Assembly (NCBI GenBank): GCA_051960855.1
Contig: JBQCDV010000091.1
Location: 56,347-120,346 of the forward strand
Reading direction: 5' to 3'
Source: Actinomycetales bacterium
GTDB lineage: Bacteria; Actinomycetota; Actinomycetes; JAJZTN01
DNA: 64,000 bases
The notes below the pieces were generated by a model. That model had not been told where the DNA came from. It searched no databases and worked only from the letters and a program-made list of their open reading frames with translations. Numbering within the stretch: position 1 is the stretch's first letter; each line of letters begins with the position of its first letter. Made by a program: the position numbers and the translations under genes. Positions 97 to 29,831 of this stretch are shown in pieces.

Positions 97-1194
97 ATGC
101 CGCGACTACGCCGTTCGGATACGGGGGGTGCCGGGTTCACGCGCCGGCGCGCCGGCAAGGGGTGGACCTACCTCGACCCCGACGGCGCCAAGGTGACCGA
201 TCCAGCTCAGCTGCAGCGTTTCCAGGACCTGGCGATTCCGCCAGCGTGGAAGGACGTCTGGATCTGCCCCTGGCCCAACGGTCACATCCAGGCGCTCGGC
301 ACGGACGCGGCCGGGAGGCGGCAGTACCTGTACCACCCGCAGTGGCGGGCACAACGCGACGCGGCCAAGCACGACCGCGTGCTCGAGGTGGCCGCGTGCC
401 TGCCTCGCGCGCGGGAGCGGGTCGCTGCCGCGCTCGCAAGCGAGGGGCTCACGCGTGAGCGGGTGCTGGCCGCGGCCTTTCGGTTGCTCGACCTTGGCTT
501 CTTCCGCGTTGGCAGCGAGAGCTACGCGGAGGACAACGGCACCTTCGGCCTCGCCACCATGCGCCGCGAGCACGTCACCGTCGACGGCGACGTGGTGGTG
601 TTCGACTACATCGCGAAGCACGGCAAGCAGCGGGTGCAAGCCGTTGTGGACCCCGCGGTCCGGCAGGTCGTGCGGGAGCTGTGCGAGCGCGACGACCCAG
701 CGCCCGAGCTGCTGGCGTGGTGGGACGACGCCCACCAGACGTGGCGCGACGTGAAGAGCAGCGACGTCAACGACTACGTGCGCGAGGCGCTGGGCGTCGA
801 TGCTTCCGCGAAGGACTTCCGCACCTGGCACGCCACGGTGCTGATGGCCGTGGCGCTCGCGGTGTCGACGGAGGTCCCGGCCTCGGTGACCGCGCGCAAG
901 CGGGCGGTGTCGCGAGGCGTCACTGAGGTCTCCTCGTATCTCGGCAACACCGCGGCGGTGTGCCGCAAGTCCTACATCGACCCGCGCGTGATCGACCTGT
1001 ACGACGACGGGATCACCGTGCGGCCCGCGCTGGACCGGCTGGCCGAGGGGCAGAGCTTCGGCGACCCGGCGACTCACGGTGCGATCGAGGCTGCGGTGCT
1101 GCAGATCCTGCGGGAGGACCCGGACGCCGCCGCGCGCAAGAAGGGCACCAGACGCGCGCCCAAAGTGCGCCGTTCGGTCGGGGCGGCCGCCTGA
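97..1194 (+). CDS. DNA topoisomerase IB (poxvirus-type, bacterial TopIB)
   Basis: 365-aa ORF; KDFRTWHAT and CRKSYIDP motifs match the TopIB catalytic Arg/His region and active-site Tyr. Confidence 0.8.
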   Translation: MPRLRRSDTGGAGFTRRRAGKGWTYLDPDGAKVTDPAQLQRFQDLAIPPAWKDVWICPWPNGHIQALGTDAAGRRQYLYHPQWRAQRDAAKHDRVLEVAACLPRARERVAAALASEGLTRERVLAAAFRLLDLGFFRVGSESYAEDNGTFGLATMRREHVTVDGDVVVFDYIAKHGKQRVQAVVDPAVRQVVRELCERDDPAPELLAWWDDAHQTWRDVKSSDVNDYVREALGVDASAKDFRTWHATVLMAVALAVSTEVPASVTARKRAVSRGVTEVSSYLGNTAAVCRKSYIDPRVIDLYDDGITVRPALDRLAEGQSFGDPATHGAIEAAVLQILREDPDAAARKKGTRRAPKVRRSVGAAA

Positions 1195-1260: not shown

Positions 1261-2919
1261 CTAGGCCGTCTTGCTCTCGTGCTCGTTCGGCACGCAGTGG
1301 GTCATCGTGATGCCGGTGACGTCACGCGGCCCGTTCTTGCCGAGGTTGTCCAGCCGCGCGCGCTCCTCATCGGAGAGCGTCTGGTGCGGCAGTGGGGGCA
1401 GGTCACGGACGTCCTCGACGCTGATGCCCAGCCCGTCGCCGACGCGCTGCCCCAGCTCGTCCTCACAGAGGAAGAAGTGCCAGACCATCCGCTCCTGGAT
1501 GCGGCGGTCGCACTGGCTGAGCGCCCCGACGAGGTTGGCGACCAGGTCGTCCTTCTCCCACTGCTCGCTGAGCAGGTAGCGCTCGCCGGCCTGCTTGTAG
1601 TCGTTGGTGCGCGGCAGCGGCTGGCGCGTCAGCCGGCCGGTGATCTGCGGTCCCTGCTCCTCGTGTGCCGGACGCTGCGCCTCCGCGAGGCCGCCGAGGA
1701 TCGACGGCTCGTAGTTAACGTGCGGGTTCTCTCCGCCGTTGTCGACGTAGTAGGCCATCTGTCCGTCGCGCTGGTTGGTGGCGACGGTGGTGCCCTTCGG
1801 CTGGTTGACGGGCAGCTGCAGGTAGTTCGGGCCGACGCGGTAGCGCTGGGTGTCGCTGTAGGAGAAGGTGCGCCCCACCAGCATCTTGTCGTCGGAGAAG
1901 TCGAGACCGTCGACCAGCACGCCGGTGCCGAAGGCGATCTGCTCGTTCTCGGCAAAGAAGTTGCTGACGTTCCGGTCGAGGACCATCCGGCCGACCGGCT
2001 TCGGCGGGAACAGCTCCTCCGGCCACACCTTCGTGTCGTCCAGCGGGTCGAAGTCGAGCTCGGGGTGGTCGTGGTCGTCCATCAGCTGCACGCGCAGCTC
2101 CCAGGCTGGGTAGTCGCCACGCTCGATGGCCTCGTAGAGGTCCTTGGTGTGGTACCCGAGCTCCTGCGCCTGGACAGCGGCGGCGTCAGCGGCGGTCCAG
2201 GAGCGCACCGGCTGCTCCGGGACCCAGTGGTACTTCACGAGCTTCGTCTCGCCCTCGGCATTGACCCACTTGTAGGTGTTGACGCCGAAGCCCTGCTGGT
2301 GTCGGTAGCTGGCCGGGATGCCGCGAGGACTGAAGAGGATCGTGACCATGTGCATGGCCTCGGGGGTCTGGCTGAGGAAGTCGAAGACGCGGTTGGGGTC
2401 CTGCCGGTTGAAGCTGACGGGGTCCGGCTTCTGCGAGTGGATGAGGTCGGGGAACTTGATGGCATCGCGGATAAAGAAGACCGCGAGGTTGTTCCCCACG
2501 AGGTCCCAGTTGCCATCCTCGGTGTAGAACTTCACGGCGAAGCCACGCGGGTCACGCACGGCCTCCGAGGAGTCCCGCCCGCCCGCGACGGTCGAGAAGC
2601 GCACCGCCACCTCGGTCCGCTTGCCCTTGTCCTGGAAGAGCTTCGCGCGCGTGAACTGCGAGATCGGGGCGTCTCCCCACGTGCCATAGGCCTCGAAATA
2701 CCCGAACGCCGTTGTCCCTCGCGCGTGCACGACGCGCTCCGGCACGCGCTCCCGGTCGAAGTGGCTGATCTTCTCGAGGAACTGGTAGTTCTCGAGCGTG
2801 GCAGGTCCCCTGGCTCCGATCGTCCGCTGGTTCTGGTTGTCGTAGACCGGGTGTCCCTGCCGGGTGGTCAGCGTCGTGCGCTGCGTGTCGGCTGGGGTGT
2901 CCTTCTTCGCGTCCGTCAT
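1261..2919 (-). CDS. katA: monofunctional heme catalase
   Basis: 552 aa with typical catalase core ([26 protein letters not shown]-like, [12 protein letters not shown]); ATGA overlap with upstream furA. Confidence 0.95.
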
Positions 2920-3476
2920 GCGGTGGTCTCCCTCTCATGGGTGACTGCTGGTTCGGCTTGGGGTGTGTGGTCTTGGCAGGCGGGGCAGAGGCCCCACCAG
3001 GTGACCTCCGCCTCGACGAGCACGAAGCCCGCCGGTGCCGAGGGGGTCACGCAGGGTGCCTCGCCGACCGCGCAGTCCACGTCGACGGTCAGGCCGCAGG
3101 CGCGGCAGATGACGTGGTGGTGGTTGTCGGCGACGCGGCGCTCGTAGCGGGCGGGTGACCCGGCCGGTTCGATGCGACGGAGCAGACCGGCACCGGTGAG
3201 CGCGTGCAGGCTGTCGTACACCGCCTGCACCGACACCCGGCCCAGTGTCTGCTGCACGTGGTCGACGACCTGGGCCGCCGAGGCATGAGGTGTCGACTCG
3301 AGGGCATCGAGGATGGCGAGCCGCACCGCCGTGACGCGCAGGCCTGCCGCGCGGAGTCCTGCCGCTCGCAGGTCGGCAGCCCGCAGGTCGGCAGCCCGCA
3401 GGTCGGCCGTCGGCCGGTCCGCGCGGGACCGGTCGGGGACCGGTGCTGCTGCCGTCACCGGGGCCTCGACGTTCAT
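2916..3476 (-). CDS. furA: Fur-family transcriptional regulator (FurA-like) with N-terminal DLRAA tandem-repeat extension
   Basis: Fur core with HHHVICxxCG and CPxC metal motifs; GGAGG RBS 8 nt upstream of ATG 3476; co-oriented and overlapping the catalase start. Confidence 0.85.
3336..3412. repeat. degenerate 15-bp tandem repeat (about 5 units, GCAGGTCGGCAGCCC-like) inside the furA 5' coding region
   Basis: Direct reading; encodes [24 protein letters not shown]. Confidence 0.8.
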
Positions 3477-3620: not shown

Positions 3621-4496
3621 ATGGGTGAGCGGATCGCCTTTCTCGGCACCGGCATCATGGGAGGGGCCATGGCGCGGCGGCTGGCGGACGCCGGGCAGGA
3701 CATCGCGGTGTGGAACCGCACCCTGGACAAGGCCAGACCGTTGGCCGACGCCGGCGCCACCGTCGCGGCCAGCGTCGCTGACGCCGTTCGCGGTCGCACC
3801 CTGCTGGTCACGATGCTCGCGGATGCCGACGTCACCGCCGCCGCCCTCGGCAACGGGGACGCGCTCGCTGGCCTCGCGCCCGACGCTCTGTGGCTGCAGA
3901 TGGCGACCGTCGGGGTCGCTGGAGAGCAGCGGCTGCGCGGTCTCGCGGAGGCCGCGGGTGTGGGCTACCTGGACGCGCCCGTCTCCGGCACGAAGCAGCC
4001 CGCCGAGCAGGGCGCCCTCACGGTGCTCGCCTCCGGGCCCGAGGACCTTCGCGCCCGCGCCGAGACGGTCTTCTCGGTCGTGGGTTCGACGACCGTGTGG
4101 GCCGGGGAGGCCGGGGCCGGCAGCCGTCTCAAGCTGGTCGTCAACACCTGGCTGCTCGGCCTCCTCGGGGCGCTGGCCGACAGCATCCGGCTCAGTGAGC
4201 TGCTCGGCCTCGACCCTGCCGGCTTCCTGGCTGCCATCGAGGGCGGCCCGCTGTTCACGCCGTACGCGAAGCTCAAGGGTGGCGCAATGATCGCGGGGGA
4301 GTATCCGGCGGCGTTCCCGCTCTCGATGGCGAGCAAGGACGCCCAGCTGGTGGTGGAGGCCGCGCACGACGCCGGCGGCGACCTCCCGGTGGCCGATGCC
4401 CTGGCCGGGCTCTTCCAGCGTGCGGCTGCCCTGGATGGCGGCGAGCTGGGCCGTGCCGACATGGCCGCTGTGGTCGAGGCCCTGCGCCGCGCGTAG
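3621..4496 (+). CDS. NAD(P)-dependent oxidoreductase, 3-hydroxyisobutyrate dehydrogenase / 6PGDH NAD-binding family
   Basis: N-terminal IAFLGTGIMGGAMARRL Rossmann motif; HIBADH-like core. Confidence 0.85.
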   Translation: MGERIAFLGTGIMGGAMARRLADAGQDIAVWNRTLDKARPLADAGATVAASVADAVRGRTLLVTMLADADVTAAALGNGDALAGLAPDALWLQMATVGVAGEQRLRGLAEAAGVGYLDAPVSGTKQPAEQGALTVLASGPEDLRARAETVFSVVGSTTVWAGEAGAGSRLKLVVNTWLLGLLGALADSIRLSELLGLDPAGFLAAIEGGPLFTPYAKLKGGAMIAGEYPAAFPLSMASKDAQLVVEAAHDAGGDLPVADALAGLFQRAAALDGGELGRADMAAVVEALRRA

Positions 4497-4508: not shown

Positions 4509-5003
4509 CTATCCGCGGAACGGCGGAGGCGGTGGTGCCAGTCGTGCGCGCGGGCAGTCCGCCAGCGTCAGCCCCCCGAAGCCGAGGGCCTCGTCGCACA
4601 GCGTCTCGACGGTCCAGCCGTGCTCGCTGCCGAACCTCGTGACGGTCGCCCGGTAGATCGTGATCTCGTACCGGGTCGGTGTGCCGTACGCGACCTGCAT
4701 GGTGCCGATGAGCTCGGCGCCGCTGTCGTCGGACGGCCCGTGAAAGGGCCGGTCGTAGCGGCTCCACAGCGACGGCTCGGACTGCCAGCAGCCGCCGTTG
4801 TGCACGTCTCGCAGCGCGAGCTCCACGAGGACCGCCCGCGCAGCCTCCTCGGGCAGGACGGCGGCCGGGCGGATCACCTGCGTGAGCACGGCCTCGTCGT
4901 ACGCCGCCGCGATCAGGTCTGCGTCGTTGCTCGCCACCCTCTGCGCATCGACATCGCCGCGGCGCGCCTTGAGTCCACGGGTTGCGGGCGACCGGCTGGT
5001 CAC
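4509..5003 (-). CDS. hypothetical protein
   Basis: 164-aa ORF between the oxidoreductase and DUF3145; no recognisable motif; start uncertain. Confidence 0.35.
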   Translation of the reverse strand: MTSRSPATRGLKARRGDVDAQRVASNDADLIAAAYDEAVLTQVIRPAAVLPEEAARAVLVELALRDVHNGGCWQSEPSLWSRYDRPFHGPSDDSGAELIGTMQVAYGTPTRYEITIYRATVTRFGSEHGWTVETLCDEALGFGGLTLADCPRARLAPPPPPFRG

Positions 5004-5137
5004 CCTTCCGACGGGAAGGGCTGGTCACGAGCCGTCTCGTCGGGCACAATGCCTGCAGCAGCTCCGCTGGCTCATCCGAGCGACGGTGCCGAGGCCGCTG
5101 GGGAAGGCGCACCTCGCACCTGCAAGGAGGACCAGCG

Positions 5138-5653
5138 ATGACCGCTGCCAGTTCGACGTCGCGCGCCCGCGGCGTCGTTTTCGTGCATTCGGTGAGCCCA
5201 GCAGTGGCGCCGCATGTCGAGTTTGCGCTGACGCATGTCCTCGGCAGCCCCGTCTCGCTGGAGTGGACGGCGCAGCCCGTCGTGCCCCGCGCGCTGCGAG
5301 CGGAGCTGTCATGGCAAGGGCGTCCCATGACGGCCGCCCGGCTGACCTCGGCACTGCGGACGCTCGAAAAGGTGCTCTTCGAGGTGACCGAGGACGCCTC
5401 ACTGGGTGGCGAGGGCGAGAGGTACAGCTATACGCCGAGCCTCGGAGTCTTCCACGCACTGGTCGGGACCCACGGCGACATCCTGCTGCCCGAGGACCGG
5501 GTCCGTGCCGCCGTCGTGCGGGCCCAGGCCGGAGAGTGCCAGCTGGACTCCGAGCTCGACCGCCTGCTCGGCAAGCCGTGGGACGACGAGCTCGAGGCCT
5601 ACCGGCACGCCGGAGAGGGCGCTCCCGTCCGCTGGCTGCACGCCGTCGTCTGA
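5138..5653 (+). CDS. DUF3145-family protein (actinobacterial, fatty-acid-synthesis-associated)
   Basis: AAGGAGGA RBS then ATG 5138; GVVFVHSVSPAVAPHVEFAL…ELSWQG resembles the DUF3145 consensus. Confidence 0.7.
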   Translation: MTAASSTSRARGVVFVHSVSPAVAPHVEFALTHVLGSPVSLEWTAQPVVPRALRAELSWQGRPMTAARLTSALRTLEKVLFEVTEDASLGGEGERYSYTPSLGVFHALVGTHGDILLPEDRVRAAVVRAQAGECQLDSELDRLLGKPWDDELEAYRHAGEGAPVRWLHAVV

Positions 5654-5800: not shown

Positions 5801-7216
5801 CTACAGCGGGATGTTGCCGTGCTGCCCGCGCAGCCCCGGCCGGTCGGCCTCGGCGATGGCGCGGGCGATCGCCGAGCGGGTCTGAGTGGGGTCGATGACC
5901 TCGTCGATCACGCCGATCTCGACGGCACGGGGCAGGCCGCCGGCGAGCTTCTCGTGCTCCGCCGCCAGCTCCAGCTCGACCTGCGCGCGCTGCTCGTCCG
6001 GCACTTCCGCCAGCCGGCGTCGGTGCAGGATGCGGATGGCAGCGACCGCTCCCATGACCGCCAGCTCCGCCGTCGGCCACGCGAAGACCTTGGTCGCTCC
6101 GAGAGCGCGGGAGTTCATCGCGATATACGCGCCGCCGTAGGACTTGCGGGTGACGAGGGTGACGCGCGGGACGACGGTCTCGGCGAAGGCGTGCAGCAGC
6201 TTGGCGCCGCGACGGACCACCCCGTCCCACTCCTGCCCGACACCGGGCAGGTAGCCGGGGACGTCGACGATGACGGCCAAGGGGACCCCGAGGGCGTCGC
6301 ACATGCGGACGAAGCGGGCTGCCTTCTCCGCGCTCGAGGAGTCGAGGCAGCCGCCGAGCCGGAGCGGGTTGTTGGCAATGACGCCGATGGTGCGGCCGCC
6401 GAGACGGCCGAGAGCGGTGACGATGTTCGGCGCCCAGCGTGGGTGCAGCTCGAGCGGCTCGTCGTCGAGGAGGGCGGCGACGAGCGGGTGCACGTCGTAG
6501 GCCCGCTTCGCCGACTCGGGCAGGTTCGCCCCCAGGTCGACGTCCTCGACGGAGTCGACGTCGAGCGTGCCCTGGCTGCCCAGCAGCGAGCACAGCCGGC
6601 GCGCCTCGTCGAAGGCCGCGTCGGTGGTCTCGGTGACGACGTGCACGACGCCGCTGCGGCGGCCGTGGGGCTCGGGACCGCCGAGGCGGAGCGCGTCGAC
6701 GTTCTCGCCGGTGACCGACCGGACGACGTCCGGGCCGGTGACGAAGACGCGTCCCTCGGGTCCGAGGATGACGATGTCGGTCAGGGCGGGGCCGTAGGCC
6801 GCTCCTCCCGCGGCGGGGCCGAGCACGACGGAGATCTGCGCGATCTTGCCGGAGGCCCGCGTCATGATGGCGAAGACCTCGCCGACGGCGTGCAGTGACA
6901 CGACGCCCTCAGGGAGCCGGGCGCCGCCGCTGTGCCAGAGCCCCACGATCGGGGTGCCATCTGCGAGGGCGCGCTGGTAGGCGGCGAGGATCACCTTGCA
7001 GCCGTCCACGCCCATCGCGCCGCCCATCACGGTGGCGTCCGAGACGAAGGCCGTGACAGGGGTGCCGTCGACGTGCCCGCGGGCGGCGAGCATGCCGCTG
7101 CGGTCGCGCTCGGTGAGCAGCTCGACCGTGCCGGGGTCGAAGAACCGCTCCAGGCGCAGGACGGGGTCGCGCGGGTCGACCTCGACGGTGAGACCAGGTG
7201 CCGCTGTCGTCGTCAC
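5801..7216 (-). CDS. accD6: acyl-CoA carboxylase carboxyltransferase beta subunit (AccD6-like)
   Basis: 471-aa carboxyl transferase domain protein; GTGA overlap with upstream kasA stop. Confidence 0.9.
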   Translation of the reverse strand: MTTTAAPGLTVEVDPRDPVLRLERFFDPGTVELLTERDRSGMLAARGHVDGTPVTAFVSDATVMGGAMGVDGCKVILAAYQRALADGTPIVGLWHSGGARLPEGVVSLHAVGEVFAIMTRASGKIAQISVVLGPAAGGAAYGPALTDIVILGPEGRVFVTGPDVVRSVTGENVDALRLGGPEPHGRRSGVVHVVTETTDAAFDEARRLCSLLGSQGTLDVDSVEDVDLGANLPESAKRAYDVHPLVAALLDDEPLELHPRWAPNIVTALGRLGGRTIGVIANNPLRLGGCLDSSSAEKAARFVRMCDALGVPLAVIVDVPGYLPGVGQEWDGVVRRGAKLLHAFAETVVPRVTLVTRKSYGGAYIAMNSRALGATKVFAWPTAELAVMGAVAAIRILHRRRLAEVPDEQRAQVELELAAEHEKLAGGLPRAVEIGVIDEVIDPTQTRSAIARAIAEADRPGLRGQHGNIPL

Positions 7217-8484
7217 GAGGCGCTCCGGACAGCGAGGGCGACGTTGTGGCCGCCGAAGCCGAAGGAGTTGTTCAGGGCGAGCAGCTCTCCCTCGGGCAGC
7301 GCCCGCGGCTCCCCTCGCGCCACATCGAGACGAACGTCGTCGTCGGGGTCCTCGAGGTTGGCTGTCGGCGGCACCTGGCGGTGGTAGAGCGCGAGGATCG
7401 TGGCGATGGTCTCGACCGCGCCGGCCGCACCGAGCAGGTGGCCGGTCATGGACTTGGTCGAGGTGACGACGACCTTGTCGGCTGCGTCGCCGAGCGCTTC
7501 ATGGATGGCCGCGGACTCCGCGACGTCGCCGACGGGCGTGGAGGTGGCGTGCGCGTTGATGTGCACGACCTGGTCGGGCGTGGCGCCGGCGTCGGCCAGT
7601 GCCAGCCCCATAGCGCGGGCCGCACCGGCGCCCGTGGGGTCGGGGGCCGCGATGTGATGGGCATCGGAGGTGATGCCCGCCCCGGCGATTACGCCGTACA
7701 CCCGGGCGCCGCGAGCCGTGGCCGACGACAGCCGCTCGAGGACGAGCACGCCCGCGCCCTCGCCGAGGACGAAGCCGTCTCGGCCCTTGTCGTAGGGCCG
7801 CGACGCGCGCTCCGGCTCGTCGTTGCGGGTCGACAGTGCCTGCATCGCGGCGAAGCCCGCGACGGGCAGCGGGTGGATCGCGGCCTCGGTGCCGCCGGCC
7901 AGGACGACGTCGGCGCGGCCGCTGCGGATCATGTCGGCGGCGTAGGCAATCGCCTCGGCGCCGCTGGAGCAGGCGCTGACCGTCGTGTGGGAGCCGGCGC
8001 GGGCCTGGAACTCGATGCTCACCCATGCTGCGGGCGAGTTGGGCATCAGCATCGGCACCGTCATCGGCAGCACCCGTCGCGCGCCGCGCTCCTTGAGCGT
8101 GTCGTAGGCGTCGAGCAGGGTCGTGACCCCACCGATGCCGCTGGCGATCACCACGCCGAGGCGCTCAGGGTCCACCTCGGGTGTGCCCGCGTCCTGCCAC
8201 GCCTCCCGCGCCGCGATCATCGCGAACTGCCCGGCGCGGTCCATGCGCTTGCGCTCGGGGACCGGGAGCACCTCGGCAGGCTCGACGGCGATCGTGCAGG
8301 CGAACTGCACGGGCACCATGTCGACCCAGTCGTAGGTCAGGGGCCGGGCGCCACTGCGGCCCGCGAGCATGGCCTCCCAGGTGGACGGGACATCTCCGCC
8401 GAGCGGGGTCGTCGCGCCGAGCCCGGTGACGACGATCGGGTCGTCAGCTCCGCTGCCGCGGCCGGCAGTCGCGTCGCTGCTCAT
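7213..8484 (-). CDS. fabF: beta-ketoacyl-ACP synthase I/II (KasA/FabF)
   Basis: Active-site Cys (SACSSG) and HINAHATST / NSFGFGGHN motifs. Confidence 0.95.
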   Translation of the reverse strand: MSSDATAGRGSGADDPIVVTGLGATTPLGGDVPSTWEAMLAGRSGARPLTYDWVDMVPVQFACTIAVEPAEVLPVPERKRMDRAGQFAMIAAREAWQDAGTPEVDPERLGVVIASGIGGVTTLLDAYDTLKERGARRVLPMTVPMLMPNSPAAWVSIEFQARAGSHTTVSACSSGAEAIAYAADMIRSGRADVVLAGGTEAAIHPLPVAGFAAMQALSTRNDEPERASRPYDKGRDGFVLGEGAGVLVLERLSSATARGARVYGVIAGAGITSDAHHIAAPDPTGAGAARAMGLALADAGATPDQVVHINAHATSTPVGDVAESAAIHEALGDAADKVVVTSTKSMTGHLLGAAGAVETIATILALYHRQVPPTANLEDPDDDVRLDVARGEPRALPEGELLALNNSFGFGGHNVALAVRSAS

Positions 8485-8643: not shown

Positions 8644-8892
8644 CTAGCTCTGGGCGCGCTGGATGAAGGCGACGGCGTCGCCGACGGTGCGCAGGTTCTT
8701 GACCTCGTCGTCCGGGATCTTCACGCCGAACTTGTCCTCGGCGTTGACGACGATCGTCATCATCGACAGCGAGTCGATGTCGAGGTCGTCGGTGAAGGAC
8801 TTGTCGGGCTGGACGTCCGAGGCGGGGATGCCGGTCTCTTCGTTGACGATCTCGGCGAGGCCGTCAAGGATGTCCTGCTCGGTGCTGGCCAT
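8644..8892 (-). CDS. acpP: acyl carrier protein
   Basis: 82 aa; DLDIDSLSM phosphopantetheine attachment motif. Confidence 0.95.
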   Translation of the reverse strand: MASTEQDILDGLAEIVNEETGIPASDVQPDKSFTDDLDIDSLSMMTIVVNAEDKFGVKIPDDEVKNLRTVGDAVAFIQRAQS

Positions 8893-8959
8893 AGGGTCTG
8901 CTCCTCCTGTTGTGTGGGGTCGAAGGTCGGTCGGATGTCACGGCGGGAGCGCCGCGCGG

Positions 8960-9973
8960 TCAGGGTAGGCGCACCACCTGGGCGGCGAACACCAGCCCGG
9001 CGCCGAAGCCGATCAGGAGGGCGAGGTCGCCGCTCTTGGCCTCGCCCGCCTCGAGCATCCGCTCCATGGCGAGCGGAATCGAGGCAGCCGAGGTGTTGCC
9101 CTGGTCGGCGATGTCGCGGGCGACGGGCACGTCAGCGGGCAGCTTGAGTGCCTTGATCATCGCGTCGGTGATGCGCATGTTGGCCTGGTGGGGGATGAAG
9201 GCGTCGAGGTCGGAGGCTTCGATGCCGGCGGCGTCCAGCGCCTGCTGGGCGACCTTGGCCATCTCCCACACTGCCCACCGGAAAACCGTCTGGCCCTGCA
9301 TCGTCAGGGGAATCCACTCGGTGCGGCCCTCGCGGACGTCGATCCACGTGCCGGTGTGGTTGATCGCCTCGTACTTCGAGCCGTCCGAGCCCCACACGGT
9401 CGGGCCGATGGCGGGGGTGTCGCTCGGGCCGACCACGACAGCGCCCGCGCCGTCGCCGAAGAGGAACGCCGTCGAGCGGTCGTGCTTGTCGGTGAAGTCG
9501 GAGAGCTTCTCGCACCCCACCACGACGACGTACTGCGCCGACCCGCCCCGCACCATGTCATGGGCGAGGGAGACGCCGTAGCAGAAGCCGGCGCAGGCCG
9601 CGGAGATGTCGAAGGCGGGCACACCGTGGGCGCCGAGGCGCTCGGCGAGCAGGGCGGCGCCGCTGGGCGTCTGCAGCGGGTGGGTCACGGTGGCGAGCAG
9701 GACCGCACCGACCTGCTCCGGGGAGATCCCGGCCTGGGCCAGCGCCTTGCCGGCAGCCGCCGTGGCCATGTCCACGACGGTCTCGTCCTCGGCGGCCCAA
9801 CGCCGCGTGACGATCCCCGAACGCTCCCGGATCCACTCATCGGAGGAGTCGATGTACTGGCAGATCTCCTCGTTGGTCACCACGCGGGACGGGCGGTAGC
9901 CGCCCACTCCGAGGATGCGGGCGTGGCGGGCGCCGGCAGGGACGGCGAGCTCGACGGTGCGGTCGCTGGGCAT
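8960..9973 (-). CDS. fabH: beta-ketoacyl-ACP synthase III
   Basis: FabH fold; AACAGF active-site Cys, HQAN and GFGAG motifs. Confidence 0.95.
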   Translation of the reverse strand: MPSDRTVELAVPAGARHARILGVGGYRPSRVVTNEEICQYIDSSDEWIRERSGIVTRRWAAEDETVVDMATAAAGKALAQAGISPEQVGAVLLATVTHPLQTPSGAALLAERLGAHGVPAFDISAACAGFCYGVSLAHDMVRGGSAQYVVVVGCEKLSDFTDKHDRSTAFLFGDGAGAVVVGPSDTPAIGPTVWGSDGSKYEAINHTGTWIDVREGRTEWIPLTMQGQTVFRWAVWEMAKVAQQALDAAGIEASDLDAFIPHQANMRITDAMIKALKLPADVPVARDIADQGNTSAASIPLAMERMLEAGEAKSGDLALLIGFGAGLVFAAQVVRLP

Positions 9974-9994
9974 GGGGGCCTCCTGTCGGCGGGG

Positions 9995-11179
9995 TCAGTG
10001 GGGGCTGAGCTCGGGGTGCAGCCGGACGAGCGGCTGGCCGGGTGCGACCGGATCGCCGTCCTCGACGAGCCACTCGACGACCGTGCCGCCGTGCGGTGCC
10101 AGGACGTCGCGGTCGTCGCGGCGCGTGCGGACCGCCCCGACCCGGCTGCCCGGCTCGAGAGCGCTGCCGACGGGGGCGCCGTCGGAGACGAACGTGCCCG
10201 AGGCCGGCGCCACCAGCAGGCGCCAGGTGGGGGAGTCGTCCATGGGGCTGGCGCTGCCGTGACGCGCGATCAGGTCGCGGGCGGCGTCGAGGTCGTCGGG
10301 CGTCTTGAGGGCCAGCGTCTCCACACCCGGCAGCGCCCGCTTGATCAGCCCGGTGAGCGTGCCGGCCGGAGGCATCTCGATGACGGCGGTGACGCCCAGG
10401 TCCTGCATCGACTGCATGCACAGGTCCCAGCGGACCGGTGAGCTGACCTGCGTGACGAGGCGCCGCAGCACGTCGCGGCCGTCGTGGACGACCGACCCGT
10501 CGGCGTTGGACAGCAGGCGCGTGCGGGGGTCGTGCACGCTGATGGCCCGGGCCAGCTTGCCGAGCACCTCCACCGCGGAGGCCATGTGCTGGGTGTGGAA
10601 CGCCCCCGCCACCTGCAGGGGGATGAGGCGGGCCTTCGCCGGCGGGTCGGACTTCAGCGCCTCGAGCTGCTCAAGAGTCCCGGCTGCCACGACCTGGCCG
10701 GCTCCGTTGATGTTGGCCGGGGTGAGCCCGTGCCGCTCGAGAGCAGCCAGAACGTCGTCCGCGTCGCCCCCCAGGACGGCCGTCATCCCGGTCGGGGTGC
10801 GGCGGCTGGCCTCCGCCATCGCCTTGCCGCGCTCACGCACGAAGACCATCGCCTGCTCGGCACTGATCACCCGGGCGCCGGCAGCGGCCGCGATTTCACC
10901 GACACTGTGGCCGGCGATCGCCCCGATGGAGCGGAACGCATCCGCCGGATGCGGGAAGAGCGCGAGCGCCGACACCATCGCCGAGGCGACCAGCAGGGGC
11001 TGGGCCACGGCGGTGTCGCGGATGGTCTCGGCGTCGGAGGTGGTGCCGTGCTCGACGAGGTCGATGCCGGCGACGGCGGAGAGCCAGTGGAGCCGGTCGG
11101 CGAAGCCGGGGAGCTCGAGCCAGGGAGTGAGGAAGCCGGGGGTCTGCGCACCCTGTCCCGGGGCCACGACGACGAGCAT
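9995..11179 (-). CDS. fabD: malonyl CoA-ACP transacylase fused to a C-terminal lysine-less biotinyl/lipoyl-like domain
   Basis: GHSVGE active-site motif; C-terminal about 95 aa with SGTF…APxxGxVxExLVEDGDPVAPGQPL hybrid-motif pattern but RTRR where AMKM is expected; start at internal MLVVVAPGQG. Confidence 0.85.
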   Translation of the reverse strand: MLVVVAPGQGAQTPGFLTPWLELPGFADRLHWLSAVAGIDLVEHGTTSDAETIRDTAVAQPLLVASAMVSALALFPHPADAFRSIGAIAGHSVGEIAAAAGARVISAEQAMVFVRERGKAMAEASRRTPTGMTAVLGGDADDVLAALERHGLTPANINGAGQVVAAGTLEQLEALKSDPPAKARLIPLQVAGAFHTQHMASAVEVLGKLARAISVHDPRTRLLSNADGSVVHDGRDVLRRLVTQVSSPVRWDLCMQSMQDLGVTAVIEMPPAGTLTGLIKRALPGVETLALKTPDDLDAARDLIARHGSASPMDDSPTWRLLVAPASGTFVSDGAPVGSALEPGSRVGAVRTRRDDRDVLAPHGGTVVEWLVEDGDPVAPGQPLVRLHPELSPH

Positions 11180-11267
11180 GGGTCCACTCTGGACCGTCGA
11201 AGGGTGCCAACAGGCAACCGGCACCGACGAACTTCGGCCATGATCTTTTGTAGGAACCCCACAAAAG

Positions 11268-12413
11268 CTACGGCGGAAGCAGCCGCCCGAGGGTGAGGGC
11301 CAGCTGCAGGATGTAGGCGTCCCGCGGGTGGGTGGCGGTCAGGCCGGTGATCTCCGCCACGCGCCGCAGCCGGTAGCGGACGGTGTTGGGGTGCACGAAC
11401 AGCAGTCGGCCCGTGGCCTCGACCGACCCGCCGTGCTCGAGGAAAGCCGCGAGGGTCTCGAGCAGAGCCGATCCCGCGTCGGCGACGGGAGCGTAGACCT
11501 CGGTGACCAGGGAACGGCGGGCATGTCCATCTCCGGACAGCGCACGTTCAGGCAGCAGCTCGTCGGCGCGGACGGGGCGGGGAGCGTCCGGCCAGCCGGC
11601 CACCGACCGGAGGCCGGCGACGGCGGCCCGGGCCGAGGCGGCCGCGTGCAGCAGGTCGGGCACGACCGGGCCGACCACGACGGGTCCGGGCCCGAAGGCG
11701 GCAGTCACCGCTCGGGCGCCGTCGGTGGCGTCACCGACCCCTCCGAGGACTGCGACCAGCCGGTCGCCCTGCACTCCGGTGAGCACGTCGAGCCCCACGA
11801 GCCGGGCGCGCCGCCGGACGTCCTCGACGACGGTCTCGGCCTCAGTTGCGGAGTGCTCGGCGCGCGCCGGGGCGTGCCCCACCACGACGGCGACGCCGCT
11901 GCCGCTGGTCCAGCCCAAGGCGGCCGCCCGGGAGCGCACCGACTCATCGGCCTCGCCGCGCAGCACGGAGTCGACGACGAGGGCCTCCAGGCGGGCGTCC
12001 CACGCCCCGCGTGCCTCGGCGGCCTTGGCGTAGATGTCGGCCGCTGCGAAGGCGACCTCGCGGGAGTAGCGCAGCACCGCTTCGCGCAGCAGCGGCTGCT
12101 CGTCGGCAGGAACGATGACCTCGATCTGCGACTCGACCACGTCGATCGTCGCCCGGACCAGCTCGACGGTCTGCTGCAGCGTCACTGCCCGAGTGAGCTC
12201 GCGCGGTGCCGTGCCGAAGACGTCGGCAGTGATGGTCGGAGACTGCGTCGGGTCCCGGAACCAGGCGACGAAGGCGGCGATGCCCGCCTGCGCCACCAGT
12301 CCCACCCAGGACCGCTCGGCTGGTCCCATGGCGCGGTACCAGCCGAGCTGGGCGTCCATCCGCTCCAACGCCGCCGCGGCCAGCAGACTGGTCGACTGCT
12401 CGACGCGTCGGAC
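11268..12413 (-). CDS. PucR-family transcriptional regulator (MabR/FasR-like regulator of the fab operon)
   Basis: C-terminal PucR HTH (HPNTVRYRLRRVAEITG); positioned upstream of fabD as in Mycobacterium and Streptomyces; the ORF-track N-terminus overlaps the aceE 3' end, so the start was moved downstream (GTG 12413 or ATG 12359). Confidence 0.75.
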   Translation of the reverse strand, partial: VRRVEQSTSLLAAAALERMDAQLGWYRAMGPAERSWVGLVAQAGIAAFVAWFRDPTQSPTITADVFGTAPRELTRAVTLQQTVELVRATIDVVESQIEVIVPADEQPLLREAVLRYSREVAFAAADIYAKAAEARGAWDARLEALVVDSVLRGEADESVRSRAAALGWTSGSGVAVVVGHAPARAEHSATEAETVVEDVRRRARLVGLDVLTGVQGDRLVAVLGGVGDATDGARAVTAAFGPGPVVVGPVVPDLLHAAASARAAVAGLRSVAGWPDAPRPVRADELLPERALSGDGHARRSLVTEVYAPVADAGSALLETLAAFLEHGGSVEATGRLLFVHPNTVRYRLRRVAEITGLTATHPRDAYILQLALTLGRLLPP

Positions 12414-12465
12414 CGTCTCCGGCGCTGGTGCGGGAAGCGCCGGAGCCGGAAGCGGCTGCGCGACC

Positions 12466-15204
12466 TCAGGCCTCGCCACCCTCGCTGCCCGTCGTTCCGG
12501 CGCGGACGTCGTCGAGCTGGTACTTCTCGATGGCCTCGCGCACGGCCTCCGGCTTGACCTCCCCGTTGCGGGCCAGCTCGGCGAGGGTCTGGACGACGAT
12601 CGAAGGCCCGTCGACCTTGAAGTACCGCCGGGCGGCCATGCGGGTGTCGGAGAAGCCGAACCCGTCGGCGCCGAGGCTGACGAAGCGACCCGGCATCCAC
12701 GGCAGGATCTGGTCGGGAACGGCGCGCATCCAGTCGCTGACGGCGATGCGCGGGCCGGGCTGGTCACCGAACGTGGCGGTCAGGTAGGGCGTCCGCTGCT
12801 CCTCGGGGTGCATGAGGTTCCACTCGTCGCACTCGAGGCCGTCGCGACGAAGCTCGGTCCACGAGGTCACCGACCAGACGTCGGCGGCGACTCCCCAGTC
12901 GCGCAGCAGCAGCTCCTGGGCCTCGAACGCCCACGGCACCGCCACACCGCTGGCGAGCAGCTGGGCCCGCGGCCGGTCCTCGTGGGCAGCCTCGCTGCGG
13001 GAGAGCAGGTAGATGCCCTTGAGCAGACCGTTGACGTCGAGGTGCTCCGGCGCCTGCGGCTGCAGCATCGGCTCGTTGTAGACCGTCAGGTAGTAGTAGA
13101 TGTTCTCCGGGTTGTCGCCGTACATCCGCCGCAGCCCGTCGCGCACGATGTGCCCGATCTCGTAGGCGTACGCGGGGTCGTAGGCGACGACCGCGGGGTT
13201 GGTCGAGGCCAGCAGCAGGGAGTGCCCGTCGGCGTGCTGCAGGCCCTCACCGGTCAAAGTGGTGCGCCCGGCGGTCGCGCCGAGCAGGAAACCGCGGGCC
13301 ATCTGGTCCGAGGCCGCCCAGAGGAAGTCGCCGGTGCGCTGGAAGCCGAACATCGAGTAGAAGATGTAGATCGGCACCATCGGCTCGCCGTGCGTGGCGT
13401 AGGACGTAGCCGCCGCCGTCCAGGACGAGACCGAGCCGGACTCGTTGATCCCCTCGTGCAGGATCTGCCCGTTGGTGGCCTCCTTGTAGGCCAGCATCAG
13501 CTCGCGGTCGACCGACATGTAGTTCTGCCCGTGCGGCGAGTAGATCTTCGCGGTCGGGAAGAGCGAGTCCATGCCGAAGGTGCGGGCCTCGTCGGGGATG
13601 ACCGGCACGAAGCGCTTGCCGAGCTCGGGGTCCTTCATGAGCTCCTTGACGAGGCGCACGAAGGCCATGGTGGTGGCGACCGGCTGCTTGCCCGATCCCC
13701 GGTTGACCACCTCGAACGGCTTGTCGCTGGGCTGCGGCAGCGGCTTGGTCCAGTCCGTGCGCCGCTTCGGCAGCGAGCCACCGAGCTGCCGGCGCCGTTC
13801 GAGGAGGTACTGGATCTCCTCGTTGTCCGGGCCCGGGTTGATGTACGGCGGCATCTTCGGGTTGCGCTCGAGCTCCTCGTCCGTGATGGGGAGAAAGAGC
13901 CGGTCGCGGAAGGCCTTGAGGTCCTCGAGGGTCAGCTTCTTCATCTGGTGCGTCGCGTTGCGCGCCTCGAAGTGGCTGCCCAGCGTCCAGCCCTTGATCG
14001 TCTTCGCAAGGATGACCGTCGGCTGGCCGGTGTGCTTCATGGCCGCGTCGTAGGCGGCATAGAGCTTGCGGTAGTCGTGGCCGCCGCGCTTGAGCGCCCA
14101 GATCTCGTCGTCGCTCAGGTGCTCGACCATCTTGCGTGTGCGCGGGTCGCGGCCGAAGAAGTGCTCGCGGACGAAGGCGCCGGACTCAGCCTTGTAGGTC
14201 TGGTAGTCGCCGTCGTTGGTGACGTTCATCAGGTTGACCAGCGCGCCGTCGACGTCGCCTGCGAGCAGGGCATCCCACTCGCGCCCCCAGATGACCTTGA
14301 TGACGTTCCAGCCGGCTCCGCGGAAGAACGACTCCAGCTCCTGGATCACCTTGCCGTTGCCGCGGACGGGCCCGTCGAGCCGCTGCAGATTGCAGTTGAT
14401 GACGAAGGTGAGGTTGTCGAGCTCCTCACGAGCCGCGACACCGATCGCGCCCAGGCTCTCCGGCTCGTCCATCTCGCCGTCGCCGAGGAACGCCCAGACG
14501 TGCTGCTGGCTGGTGTCCTTGATGCCGCGGTGCTGGAGGTACTTGTTGAAGCGGGCCTGGTAGATCGCGTTCATGGGCCCGATGCCCATGGAGACGGTGG
14601 GGAACTCCCAGAAGTGCGGCATCAGCCGCGGGTGCGGGTAGGACGGCAGGCCGCCACCGGGGTGGGACTTCTCCTGCCGGAACCCGTCCAGGTCGTTCTC
14701 GGTGAGCCGGCCCTCGAGGAAGGCACGGGCGTAGATCCCGGGGGAGGCGTGGCCCTGGATGAAGATCTGGTCGCCGCCGCCGGGGTGGTCCTTGCCGCGG
14801 AAGAAGTGGTTGAAGCCGACCTCGTACATGCTGGCGCTGGAGGCGTAGGTCGAGATGTGGCCACCGACGCCGATGCCGGGCCGCTGGGCGCGGTGCACCA
14901 TCACGGCGGCGTTCCAGCGCATGTACGCGCGCAGCCGGCGCTCGACGTACTCGTCGCCGGGGAACCACGGCTCCGCCTCAGGCGGGATCGTGTTGATGTA
15001 GTCGGTGCTGCGCAGCGACGGGACCCCGACTTGGTCTTCGCGCGCACGCTTCAGCAGGCTCAGCATCAGGTAGCGCGCCCGGGTGCGACCGCGCTGCTCG
15101 ACGACCTGGTCGAGCGACTCGAGCCACTCCGAGGTCTCGTCGGGGTCGATGTCGGGAAGCTGGCTGGGCAGACCGTTACTGATGATCCGACCGGTGTCAG
15201 ACAC
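12466..15204 (-). CDS. aceE: pyruvate dehydrogenase E1 component
   Basis: 912-aa homodimeric-type E1 with ThDP-binding motifs. Confidence 0.95.
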
Positions 15205-18997: not shown

Positions 18998-19069
18998 GGG
19001 CGTATAGCTCAGCGGTAGAGCTCCGGTCTTACACACCGGCGGTCGGCGGTTCGAATCCGTCTGCGCCCA
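18998..19069 (+). tRNA. tRNA-Val (anticodon TAC)
   Basis: 72-nt cloverleaf folded by hand: acceptor GGGCGTA/TGCGCCC, anticodon loop CTTACAC, TTCGAAT T-loop. Confidence 0.85.
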
Positions 19070-19070
19070 C

Positions 19071-29432: not shown

Positions 29433-29813
29433 GACGAGTCGGCCGGGCGGTCGCGTCGGCCGTCACCGCGAGGTGGCTGCCGCCGAGGAAAGTCCGGGCT
29501 CCACAGGGCAGGGTGGTGGGTAACGCCCACCCGGGGTGACCCGCGGGACAGTGCCACAGAGAGCAGACCGCCGGCTCCCTTCGGGGACCGGTAAGGGTGA
29601 AAGGGTGGTGTAAGAGACCACCAGCGCCTGGGGTGACCCAGGCGGCTCGGCAAACCCCACCCGGAGCAAGGTCAGACAGGAAGCGTCCGAGGGCGGCCCG
29701 CCCGAGCTTCCGGGTAGACCGCTGGAGGCCACCGGCAACGGTGGCCCGAGATGGATGGCCGTCGCGCACCGCGAGGTGCGTCAACAGAACCCGGCTTACA
29801 GGCCGGCTCGTCC
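29433..29813 (+). ncRNA. rnpB: RNase P RNA (bacterial type A)
   Basis: GAGGAAAGTCCGGGCTCCACAGGGCA P4 region and ACAGAACCCGGCTTA 3' P4 strand; P1 stem GACGAGTCGGCC / GGCCGGCTCGTC. Confidence 0.85.
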
Positions 29814-29831
29814 CCTTACCTCGGGAGCGCC

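Follow-up and report, generated by a model that had tools for sequence, protein, structure and literature searches.

A lysine-less biotin carrier-type domain fused to FabD in the fatty acid synthesis operon of a group of Actinomycetes

The malonyl-CoA:acyl carrier protein (ACP) transacylase FabD (MCAT) is usually seen as a simple, single-domain housekeeping enzyme. In Mycobacterium tuberculosis, the fabD gene (Rv2243) is 909 nt long, unfused, and located with acpM, kasA, kasB, and accD6 (Rv2247), and AccA3-AccD6 produces the malonyl-CoA that FabD consumes (PMC8733736). The recognition sequence of the regulator MabR has been reported as TTTTGT-N9-ACAAAA (PMC5541348). In plants, the BADC proteins are non-biotinylated paralogs of the biotin carboxyl carrier protein (BCCP), which associate with the biotin carboxylase subcomplex and were initially reported to be negative regulators (PMC12706156). 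Here, we describe the fabD gene in a 64,000-nt stretch of DNA from Actinomycetales bacterium (assembly GCA_051960855.1, contig JBQCDV010000091.1, positions 56,347 to 120,346), the whole of which is referred to below as the window. This gene almost certainly encodes a FabD that is fused in frame to a BCCP-type domain lacking the biotinylated lysine.

The fabD fusion gene and its two domains

The coding sequence and its parts are located as follows.

9995..11179, minus strand: fabD-fusion coding sequence, 394 aa from the ATG at 11177-11179, with the stop at 9995-9997
10268..11179, minus strand: FabD catalytic domain, residues 1-304 (PF00698, E=2e-18; Foldseek to 1nm2)
10898..10912, minus strand: GHSVG active-site motif with the FabD serine nucleophile (motif positions, alignment)
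10232..10267, minus strand: flexible linker of ~12 residues (...HGSASPMDDS), with a predicted local distance difference test score (pLDDT) of ~63 at residues 311-320
10010..10231, minus strand: lysine-less BCCP-type domain, residues 317-390 (PTWRLLVAP...LVRLHPE), 74 residues, predicted eight-strand barrel-sandwich (profile, Pfam, AlphaFold2 (AF2), and Foldseek)
10118-10120, minus strand: Arg codon, R354 in the 394-aa product and R369 in a 409-aa product, at the hairpin site of the biotinyl Lys in true BCCPs (profile alignment to 1o78)

A preliminary description of this DNA had reported a FabD with an extra C-terminal domain at 9995-11224 without stating the strand. The report was borne out for the minus strand; a plus-strand reading of the same interval contains many stops and was discarded. 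The open reading frame (ORF) is uninterrupted over 9995-11224 and offers an alternative GTG start at 11224, which would yield the 409-aa product. The ATG at 11177-11179 is likely the true start, because the 394-aa product is 100% identical to the protein from the NCBI metagenome-assembled genome (MAG), P0121 ('acyltransferase domain-containing protein [Actinomycetales bacterium]', 394 aa), and because the start and length of the homologs agree with it. The best 120 full-length homologs are 392-413 aa long and share the start MLVxVAPGQGAQ. The extension that follows the FabD part has 88 residues, comprising a linker of ~10-12 residues, the domain of 74 residues, and a tail of four.

The junction between the two parts appears to be genuine. 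The window has a G+C content of 71.6%, and the G+C content at third codon positions (GC3) is 0.91 in residues 1-300 vs 0.95 in residues 301-409, with no stop and no frameshift between the FabD part and the extension; a separating frameshift was the possibility that the preliminary description had raised. Since GC3 shows no break and the two parts share one ORF, the extension is expected to be translated in frame with FabD. An artifact of this assembly, in which a sequencing frameshift or a lost stop has joined two genes, can be virtually dismissed: no support for it was found, GC3 is continuous, and the same in-frame fusion recurs at 76 of the 80 independent loci and in all of the 120 best protein homologs. 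Here and below, locus counts refer to the 80 best genome loci, and an in-frame fusion was scored where the domain and the GHSxGE motif share one stop-to-stop frame. Four loci are unconfirmed, three in which the FabD part is cut by the contig end and one in which the search pattern was unmatched.

By its motifs and fold, the FabD part is predicted to be catalytically complete. It contains GQGAQ, GHSVGE with the nucleophile, VRERG with the malonate-binding Arg, and AFHT (GAFHT) with the His. In an alignment of 66 sequences, H91, S92, V93, G94, and E95 of the GHSVGE motif (residues 90-95 in 394-aa numbering) are invariant, and R117, H195, and Q9/Q12 are invariant or nearly so; the E. coli counterparts of the malonate-binding Arg, the catalytic His, and the oxyanion/Gln motif are presumably R117, H201, and Q11. 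The full protein scores 67.3 bits against PF00698 (cutoff 32.7). Its score against the NCBIfam model TIGR00128 is 165.9 bits (cutoff 260.9), and the mdcH model scores slightly higher, at 177.4 bits, under its own cutoff. Operon context and 61% identity to the solved Streptomyces coelicolor enzyme (1nm2) favor assignment as a FabD over mdcH. The AF2 model (pLDDT 92.9) shows the two-subdomain MCAT fold, and Foldseek superimposes it on 1nm2 with a root-mean-square deviation (rmsd) of 1.2 Å and a template-modeling score (TMt) of 0.96, and on M. tuberculosis FabD (50% identity) with a TMt of 0.95. The linker starts exactly at the end point of S. coelicolor FabD, the 1nm2 alignment stopping at ...DLDAARELVAEHTQ (...LVAEHTQ).

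Profile searches and structural modeling place the C-terminal domain in the biotinyl/lipoyl superfamily (PF00364), and there with the BCCP rather than the lipoyl type. The SGTF and PHGGTVVEWLVEDGDPVAPGQPL motifs, from which the preliminary description had recognized a biotinyl/lipoyl hybrid-motif pattern, were both found in the minus-strand translation. When the full protein was scanned, the Pfam matches to this region were below threshold (PF13533, 24.5 bits, cutoff 29.8; PF00364, 18.3 bits, cutoff 22.1). When the domain was scanned alone, PF00364 reached 23.1 bits, above the cutoff of 22.1, and the same model is matched by 35 of 35 family members (E≤0.01, best E=2.3e-12). HlyD_3, HlyD_D23, QRPTase_N, and RnfC_N are matched by the family as well. 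All NCBIfam matches within the domain belong to families of biotin carriers (PRK07051, BCCP, and pyruvate carboxylase subunit B), but the scores stay below the cutoffs of these models (TIGR00531, 14.9 bits, cutoff 115.2; PRK07051, 31 bits, cutoff 87). The family profile aligns to the BCCP of the 1.3S transcarboxylase (1o78) with E=1e-12, and at this profile level an E2 lipoyl domain follows close behind the best BCCP.

The AF2 model of the isolated domain (pLDDT 88.8), a structure prediction that the preliminary description had suggested, shows a barrel-sandwich fold with an end hairpin, in which DSSP assigns six strands of at least three residues. The best Foldseek match in the PDB is the BCCP of Pyrococcus horikoshii (2evb), with an rmsd of 1.2-1.4 Å over 67-69 columns and a TMt of 0.85-0.90, and the alpha subunit of MCC from Mycobacterium smegmatis (9yx0) is among the neighbors at 35% identity. 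The matches listed above the first lipoyl domain, which appears at rank 45, are mostly BCCP domains of biotin enzymes, plus a few barrel-sandwich proteins (CphZ, BesA). A lipoyl-domain reading was considered because aceE adjoins the operon; it is not favored, given that the NCBIfam matches are all to biotin carriers and that the first lipoyl domain ranks so low.

The preliminary description had also read the AMKM biotinylation motif as being replaced by RTRR, and the profile alignment agrees. It pairs E-A-M-K-M with R-T-R-R-D and places the biotinyl Lys on the second Arg of 'TRR', which is R354. At the position of the lysine, 275 of 290 unique family sequences (95%) have R, 11 have Q, four have another residue, and none has K; all 11 sequences with Q have R one residue earlier. 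Biotin and lipoate ligases require a Lys at the hairpin tip. Because an Arg takes the place of the target Lys, the domain is predicted to be incapable of biotinylation and, with the defining lysine absent, should not be a functional BCCP. It is very improbable that the domain is instead a cryptic carrier, modified with biotin, lipoate, or another group on a different residue. A Lys is found in the first turn (AP-A-K-G-T-F) in 285 of ~400 homolog rows, but the residue is Ser in the window protein (APASGTF) and so is not conserved. Judging from strand topology, this turn would lie beside the modification hairpin and not on it, and the hairpin tip, where the ligases need their Lys, never carries one.

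Spread and conservation of the fusion

The domain is encoded in at least 508 species-level genomes, as counted in a scan of one genome per species. Carriers from the scan include Nocardioides, Marmoricola, Jiangella, Phytoactinopolyspora, Haloactinopolyspora, Actinopolymorpha, Sporichthyaceae, Nanopelagicales, Actinocrinis, and a Streptosporangiales MAG, and Angustibacter is among the protein matches. With the taxonomy of the carriers checked, the groups represented include Nocardioidaceae, Jiangellaceae, Kineosporiales, Sporichthyaceae, Nanopelagicales, and Catenulisporales. Of the two orders in which the preliminary description had proposed to look for the same fusion, Propionibacteriales do carry it, and no member of the Micrococcales is among the 80 best loci. 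Four of the loci (L009, L011, L034, and L068) come from MAGs named 'Bifidobacterium breve' or 'Bifidobacterium sp.' that carry the fused fab operon and group with Nocardioidaceae/Jiangellaceae-type loci. These Bifidobacterium labels are probably wrong.

With the extension as the query, 435 proteins were retrieved, the best 120 of which are 104-182 aa long and mostly from short contigs. These were candidates for a stand-alone form of the domain; the 14 that were inspected are C-terminal pieces of fused FabDs, resulting from internal Met starts or contig-end cuts. In two shorter candidates of ~83 aa (P0252 and P0292), the start lies 14-41 nt away from a contig end and fabH comes next, so both were set aside as truncated calls. 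Among the matches examined, we found no free-standing family member and no truncated or decayed version. Long representatives were also rejected as a clue to the origin of the domain, since, of those inspected, some are frame-shifted calls (P0328, P0257) and others are multi-domain lipoyl/HlyD/BCCP proteins (P0244, P0271, P0275, P0330, P0334); P0248 is likewise a frame-shifted gene call.

Public annotation already holds these proteins with precomputed PF00364 and PF00698 matches. NCBI labels fragments of the fusion (P0002, P0029, P0052, and others) as 'biotin attachment protein' or 'biotin/lipoyl-binding protein', despite there being no attachment Lys. A full-text literature search, with most subscription journals outside its coverage, found no paper on a fusion of FabD to a BCCP-like domain. 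The architecture is widespread and apparently undescribed, and the two-domain form is the regular FabD in a large group of Actinomycetes.

The sequence of the domain is well conserved. Of the 85 columns in the domain alignment, 13 are invariant and another 14 reach at least 90% conservation; surface-type residues and the hairpin Arg are among them. Several conserved elements are atypical of BCCPs, namely PTWR ahead of strand 1, APHGG, the E-W of strand 6, and a terminal RLHPE; among the residues that depart from the BCCP consensus, W319, R320, W370, H388, P389, and the His of the APHGG turn are invariant. By strand topology, these unusual residues, except W370, would mostly cluster at the linker-side end of the domain. 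The ratio of nonsynonymous to synonymous substitution rates (dN/dS) is 0.02-0.25 for the domain vs 0.007-0.29 for the FabD part in close pairs, to which the comparison was limited because the values for distant pairs are inflated by extreme GC3 bias. Based on its spread, its conserved columns, and dN/dS, the domain appears to be under purifying selection similar to that of FabD, as a conserved part of this FabD lineage and not an artifact or a decaying relic.

These data bear directly on the possibility that the domain is a structural appendage, that is, an ancestral BCCP fusion that lost its lysine and was kept as a tag that aids solubility or stability but binds no particular partner. The lost lysine and the flexible linker would fit such an origin. 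We regard it as quite improbable because the domain has been kept in at least 508 species across several orders with a dN/dS like that of the catalytic domain, because 13 invariant and 14 nearly invariant columns of 85 include the hairpin Arg, and because no truncated or decayed versions occur among the matches.

The fab operon and a possible link to acyl-CoA carboxylase

The fusion gene is part of a minus-strand gene order that reads aceE, PucR-type regulator (mabR/fasR), fabD fusion, fabH, acpP, fabF, and accD6. The features around fabD are listed below.

12466..15204, minus strand: aceE (pyruvate dehydrogenase E1), upstream neighbor (domain scan; synteny in 49 of 80 loci, which are those with a long enough flank)
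11268..12767, minus strand: PucR-type regulator, ortholog of MabR and of S. coelicolor FasR (GGDEF_2 and HTH_30 domains)
11246..11266, strand not applicable: palindrome TTTTGT-N9-ACAAAA (TTTTGTAGGAACCCCACAAAA), an exact match to the published MabR recognition sequence
8960..9973, minus strand: fabH, beta-ketoacyl-ACP synthase (KAS) III (Pfam/NCBIfam), beginning 21 nt past the fabD stop with a GGAGG ribosome-binding site ahead of it
8644..8892, minus strand: acpP, acyl carrier protein (PF00550)
7213..8484, minus strand: fabF/kasA-type beta-ketoacyl-ACP synthase (PF00109 and PF02801)
5801..7216, minus strand: beta subunit of an AccD6-type carboxyltransferase, closing the operon (PF01039; similarity to 4fb8)

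The carboxyltransferase at the end of the operon had been named AccD6 in the preliminary description, and full-length comparison upholds the name. It aligns to M. tuberculosis AccD6 (4fb8) with 648 bits, residues 4-471 on 4-473, whereas PccB and AccD5 reach 390 and 359 bits, respectively; by this measure, it is an AccD6 ortholog. The operon synteny is kept in 80 of 80 fused loci. AccD6 ends the operon in 70 of the 71 loci that could be evaluated, and nine of the remaining 10 are cut off before that position. Even at a locus whose fused FabD is only 49% identical (L084), fabH, acpP, and fabF are followed by a carboxyltransferase. At L084, the AccD6-like ORF of 478 aa (11676-13112), the ATG of which overlaps the fabF stop, is missing from the NCBI gene list of the MAG, and two SDR genes (fabG/inhA-like) lie after it. 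In the window, a plus-strand DUF3145 gene (4982-5653, with a probable start near 5138) runs convergently toward the fab operon and lies beyond its AccD6 end. Both in Streptomyces (L085) and in Phytoactinopolyspora halophila (L012), DUF3145 comes right after fabF, which gives AccD6 the look of a gene inserted between these two. A search of the window for an AccA gene or a second biotinyl domain found neither.

Upstream of fabD, the regulator ORF as listed encodes 499 aa and overlaps the aceE ORF. Because its homologs have only ~400 aa (401-402 aa for those in the same position at L084 and L085), the true start is probably near 12470. The palindrome stands directly after the regulator stop codon and ~65 nt upstream of the fabD ATG; TTTTGT-N9-ACAAAA has one match in the window vs 0 expected by chance. 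Related loci have a variant, TTGTAGG-N3-CCTxCAA, at the same place, with a conserved TTTCGT/TTGTG element ~20 nt on.

As a tentative explanation for the fusion, and the likeliest of those considered, we propose that the domain may mimic a BCCP and so dock FabD onto the acyl-CoA carboxylase AccA-AccD6. The domain would use the surfaces by which a true BCCP visits the carboxyltransferase (AccD6) or the biotin carboxylase (AccA), and the conserved Arg at the hairpin tip would act as a contact residue in place of biocytin. FabD would thereby be held beside the carboxylase, malonyl-CoA could be loaded onto ACP near the site of its synthesis, and the net effect could be either channeling or a brake on the carboxylase. 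Several observations point in this direction. The hairpin length is kept, nearly every member carries an Arg at the Lys position or adjacent to it, and the closest relatives of the domain are the BCCP domains of acyl-CoA carboxylase alpha subunits. The operon nearly always carries AccD6, whose product FabD consumes, and the Streptomyces operon with an unfused FabD is also without AccD6. In addition, there is a precedent in plants, where lysine-less BADCs join the carboxylase complex (PMC12706156).

A number of points weigh against docking. The evidence for it is circumstantial, and the AF2 model is uninformative on partners, its predicted TM-score (pTM) of 0.81 leaving the orientation of the domain relative to FabD ambiguous. 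AccD6 does not appear to need the domain, because M. tuberculosis has accD6 in its locus together with an unfused FabD. Conversely, Phytoactinopolyspora halophila (L012, region 8871-9992) has the fusion without an operonic AccD6, its fabF being followed by the convergent DUF3145 gene; its sister species P. alkaliphila (L033) has a carboxyltransferase after fabF. The side chain of Arg falls far short of biocytin in length and could not extend into the carboxyltransferase active site in the same way. Finally, the real carrier would face competition from a mimic that occupied the docking sites of BCCP.

The last of the points against docking can be turned into an explanation of its own. As a BADC-like brake, the dead carrier would compete with the biotinylated BCCP of AccA for the biotin carboxylase and carboxyltransferase sites and would throttle malonyl-CoA synthesis in step with FabD abundance or occupancy, a negative feedback in place of channeling. 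This possibility draws on the same structural facts as docking, competition is the simplest outcome of a mimic at BCCP sites, and plant BADCs, which are without the biotinylation motif, bind the biotin carboxylase subcomplex and were at first taken for negative regulators (PMC12706156). We nevertheless consider a brake improbable. BADCs are free-standing proteins with long disordered regions, whereas here only a 74-residue domain is present and it is fused to an enzyme; there is also no clear reason to tie an inhibitor stoichiometrically to the consumer of the product.

A different possibility, unlikely in our view but deserving of attention, is that the domain serves within type II fatty acid synthesis (FAS-II) and independently of the carboxylase, by binding the acidic ACP through the Arg hairpin, tethering FabD to FabH or FabF, dimerizing FabD, or gating its active site. 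Barrel-sandwich hybrid domains act as interaction modules in many unrelated proteins, and the family also matches HlyD_3, HlyD_D23, QRPTase_N, and RnfC_N. The basic conserved hairpin (R354, often with more Arg) would be well matched to an acidic protein such as ACP, the unusual invariant residues placed at the linker-side end by strand topology might contact FabD, and the fused genome without an operonic AccD6 would be accommodated. On the other hand, the nearest relatives in sequence and structure are specifically BCCPs and not generic barrel-sandwich proteins, and unfused FabDs work with ACP without such a domain. Nor is there a sign of an intramolecular interface, as the domain gains nothing in pLDDT within the full-length model over the model of the domain alone.

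Returning to the docking proposal, a broader form of it is more doubtful but can be stated. A group of Actinomycetes might physically couple acetyl-CoA carboxylase to FAS-II by way of an Arg-tipped BCCP mimic, a bacterial counterpart of BADC built into the next enzyme of the pathway, which would channel malonyl-CoA or feed FabD occupancy back to the carboxylase. What is clear is that a large and environmentally abundant set of Actinomycetes keeps a dead carrier-type domain on its FabD. If docking on the acyl-CoA carboxylase is true, the fusion would provide direct evidence for a physical connection from the carboxylase to FAS-II in bacteria, would give plant BADC regulation a parallel among prokaryotes, and would be relevant to the engineering of malonyl-CoA flux in actinomycetes that produce polyketides and lipids. 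Should the partner be a different one, the domain would still represent a new use of the biotinyl fold. The finding also affects annotation, since many database fragments are called biotin/lipoyl-binding though the attachment Lys is absent.

Other features noted in the window are given here for completeness.

97-1194, plus strand: bacterial type IB topoisomerase (Top1B_N_bact and Topoisom_I), relatively uncommon in bacteria
1261-2919, minus strand: monofunctional catalase (PF00199)
2916-3476, minus strand: Fur-family regulator directly upstream of the catalase gene, the ends of the two overlapping; the pair resembles furA-katG, but the catalase class differs
4509-5003, minus strand: ORF of 164 aa, coding-like in its GC3 (0.90) but unmatched in Pfam, flanked by the DUF3145 gene and a gene for an NAD-binding dehydrogenase (3621-4496, plus strand)
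18998-19070, plus strand: tRNA-Val(TAC)
29435-29814, plus strand: RNase P RNA, bacterial class A (303 bits)

Comparison with known systems

The enzyme of S. coelicolor (1NM2) is a close match across the FabD domain, at 61% identity and an rmsd of 1.2 Å, and the Streptomyces operon has the same PucR-type regulator upstream, the same order of fabD, fabH, acpP, and fabF, and a convergent DUF3145 gene after the operon. Streptomyces FabD differs in having no C-terminal domain, 120 of 120 homologs being 304-324 aa long, and its operon (L085) runs from fasR through fabD, fabH, acpP, and fabF to DUF3145 with no carboxyltransferase gene. The controls for the unfused state were this one Streptomyces locus and the published M. 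tuberculosis data. As Streptomyces is without both the domain and the carboxyltransferase gene, the fused lineage has both as extras relative to Streptomyces.

The fasII locus of M. tuberculosis is similar in another respect. It shares the synteny from aceE and mabR, which we take to be Rv2241 and Rv2242, through fabD to accD6; its AccD6 is orthologous, its FabD is 50% identical, and its MabR operator TTTTGT-N9-ACAAAA is identical to that in the window. In contrast to the protein described here, M. tuberculosis FabD has 302 aa (PDB chain) and no C-terminal domain. The operon also differs in having two KAS genes and no fabH, and FAS-II in that organism elongates the products of type I fatty acid synthesis (FAS-I).

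The domain itself can be compared with the BCCP domains of acyl-CoA carboxylase alpha subunits, as in MCC alpha of M. smegmatis (9yx0), and with that of P. horikoshii (2evb). It superimposes on these with an rmsd of 1.2-1.8 Å at no more than 35% identity, and it shares with them both AP-x-x-G-x-V half-motifs and an equal hairpin length. Unlike these BCCPs, the FabD-fused domain has an Arg for the biotinyl Lys, with R-D-E in place of M-K-M, and has the family-specific PTWR, APHGG, EW, and RLHPE elements; it is joined to FabD and not to a biotin carboxylase.

Finally, the plant BADCs also have a BCCP-like domain without the biotinylation motif, are non-catalytic, and act at the entry step of fatty acid synthesis (PMC12706156). 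They differ in being plastid proteins that stand alone, contain large disordered regions, and assemble with biotin carboxylase, whereas the domain in the window is a bare 74-residue fold, bacterial, and always fused to FabD; the likeness between the two is one of fold. The plant BADCs are the closest known concept for the FabD-fused domain, by way of resemblance rather than membership.

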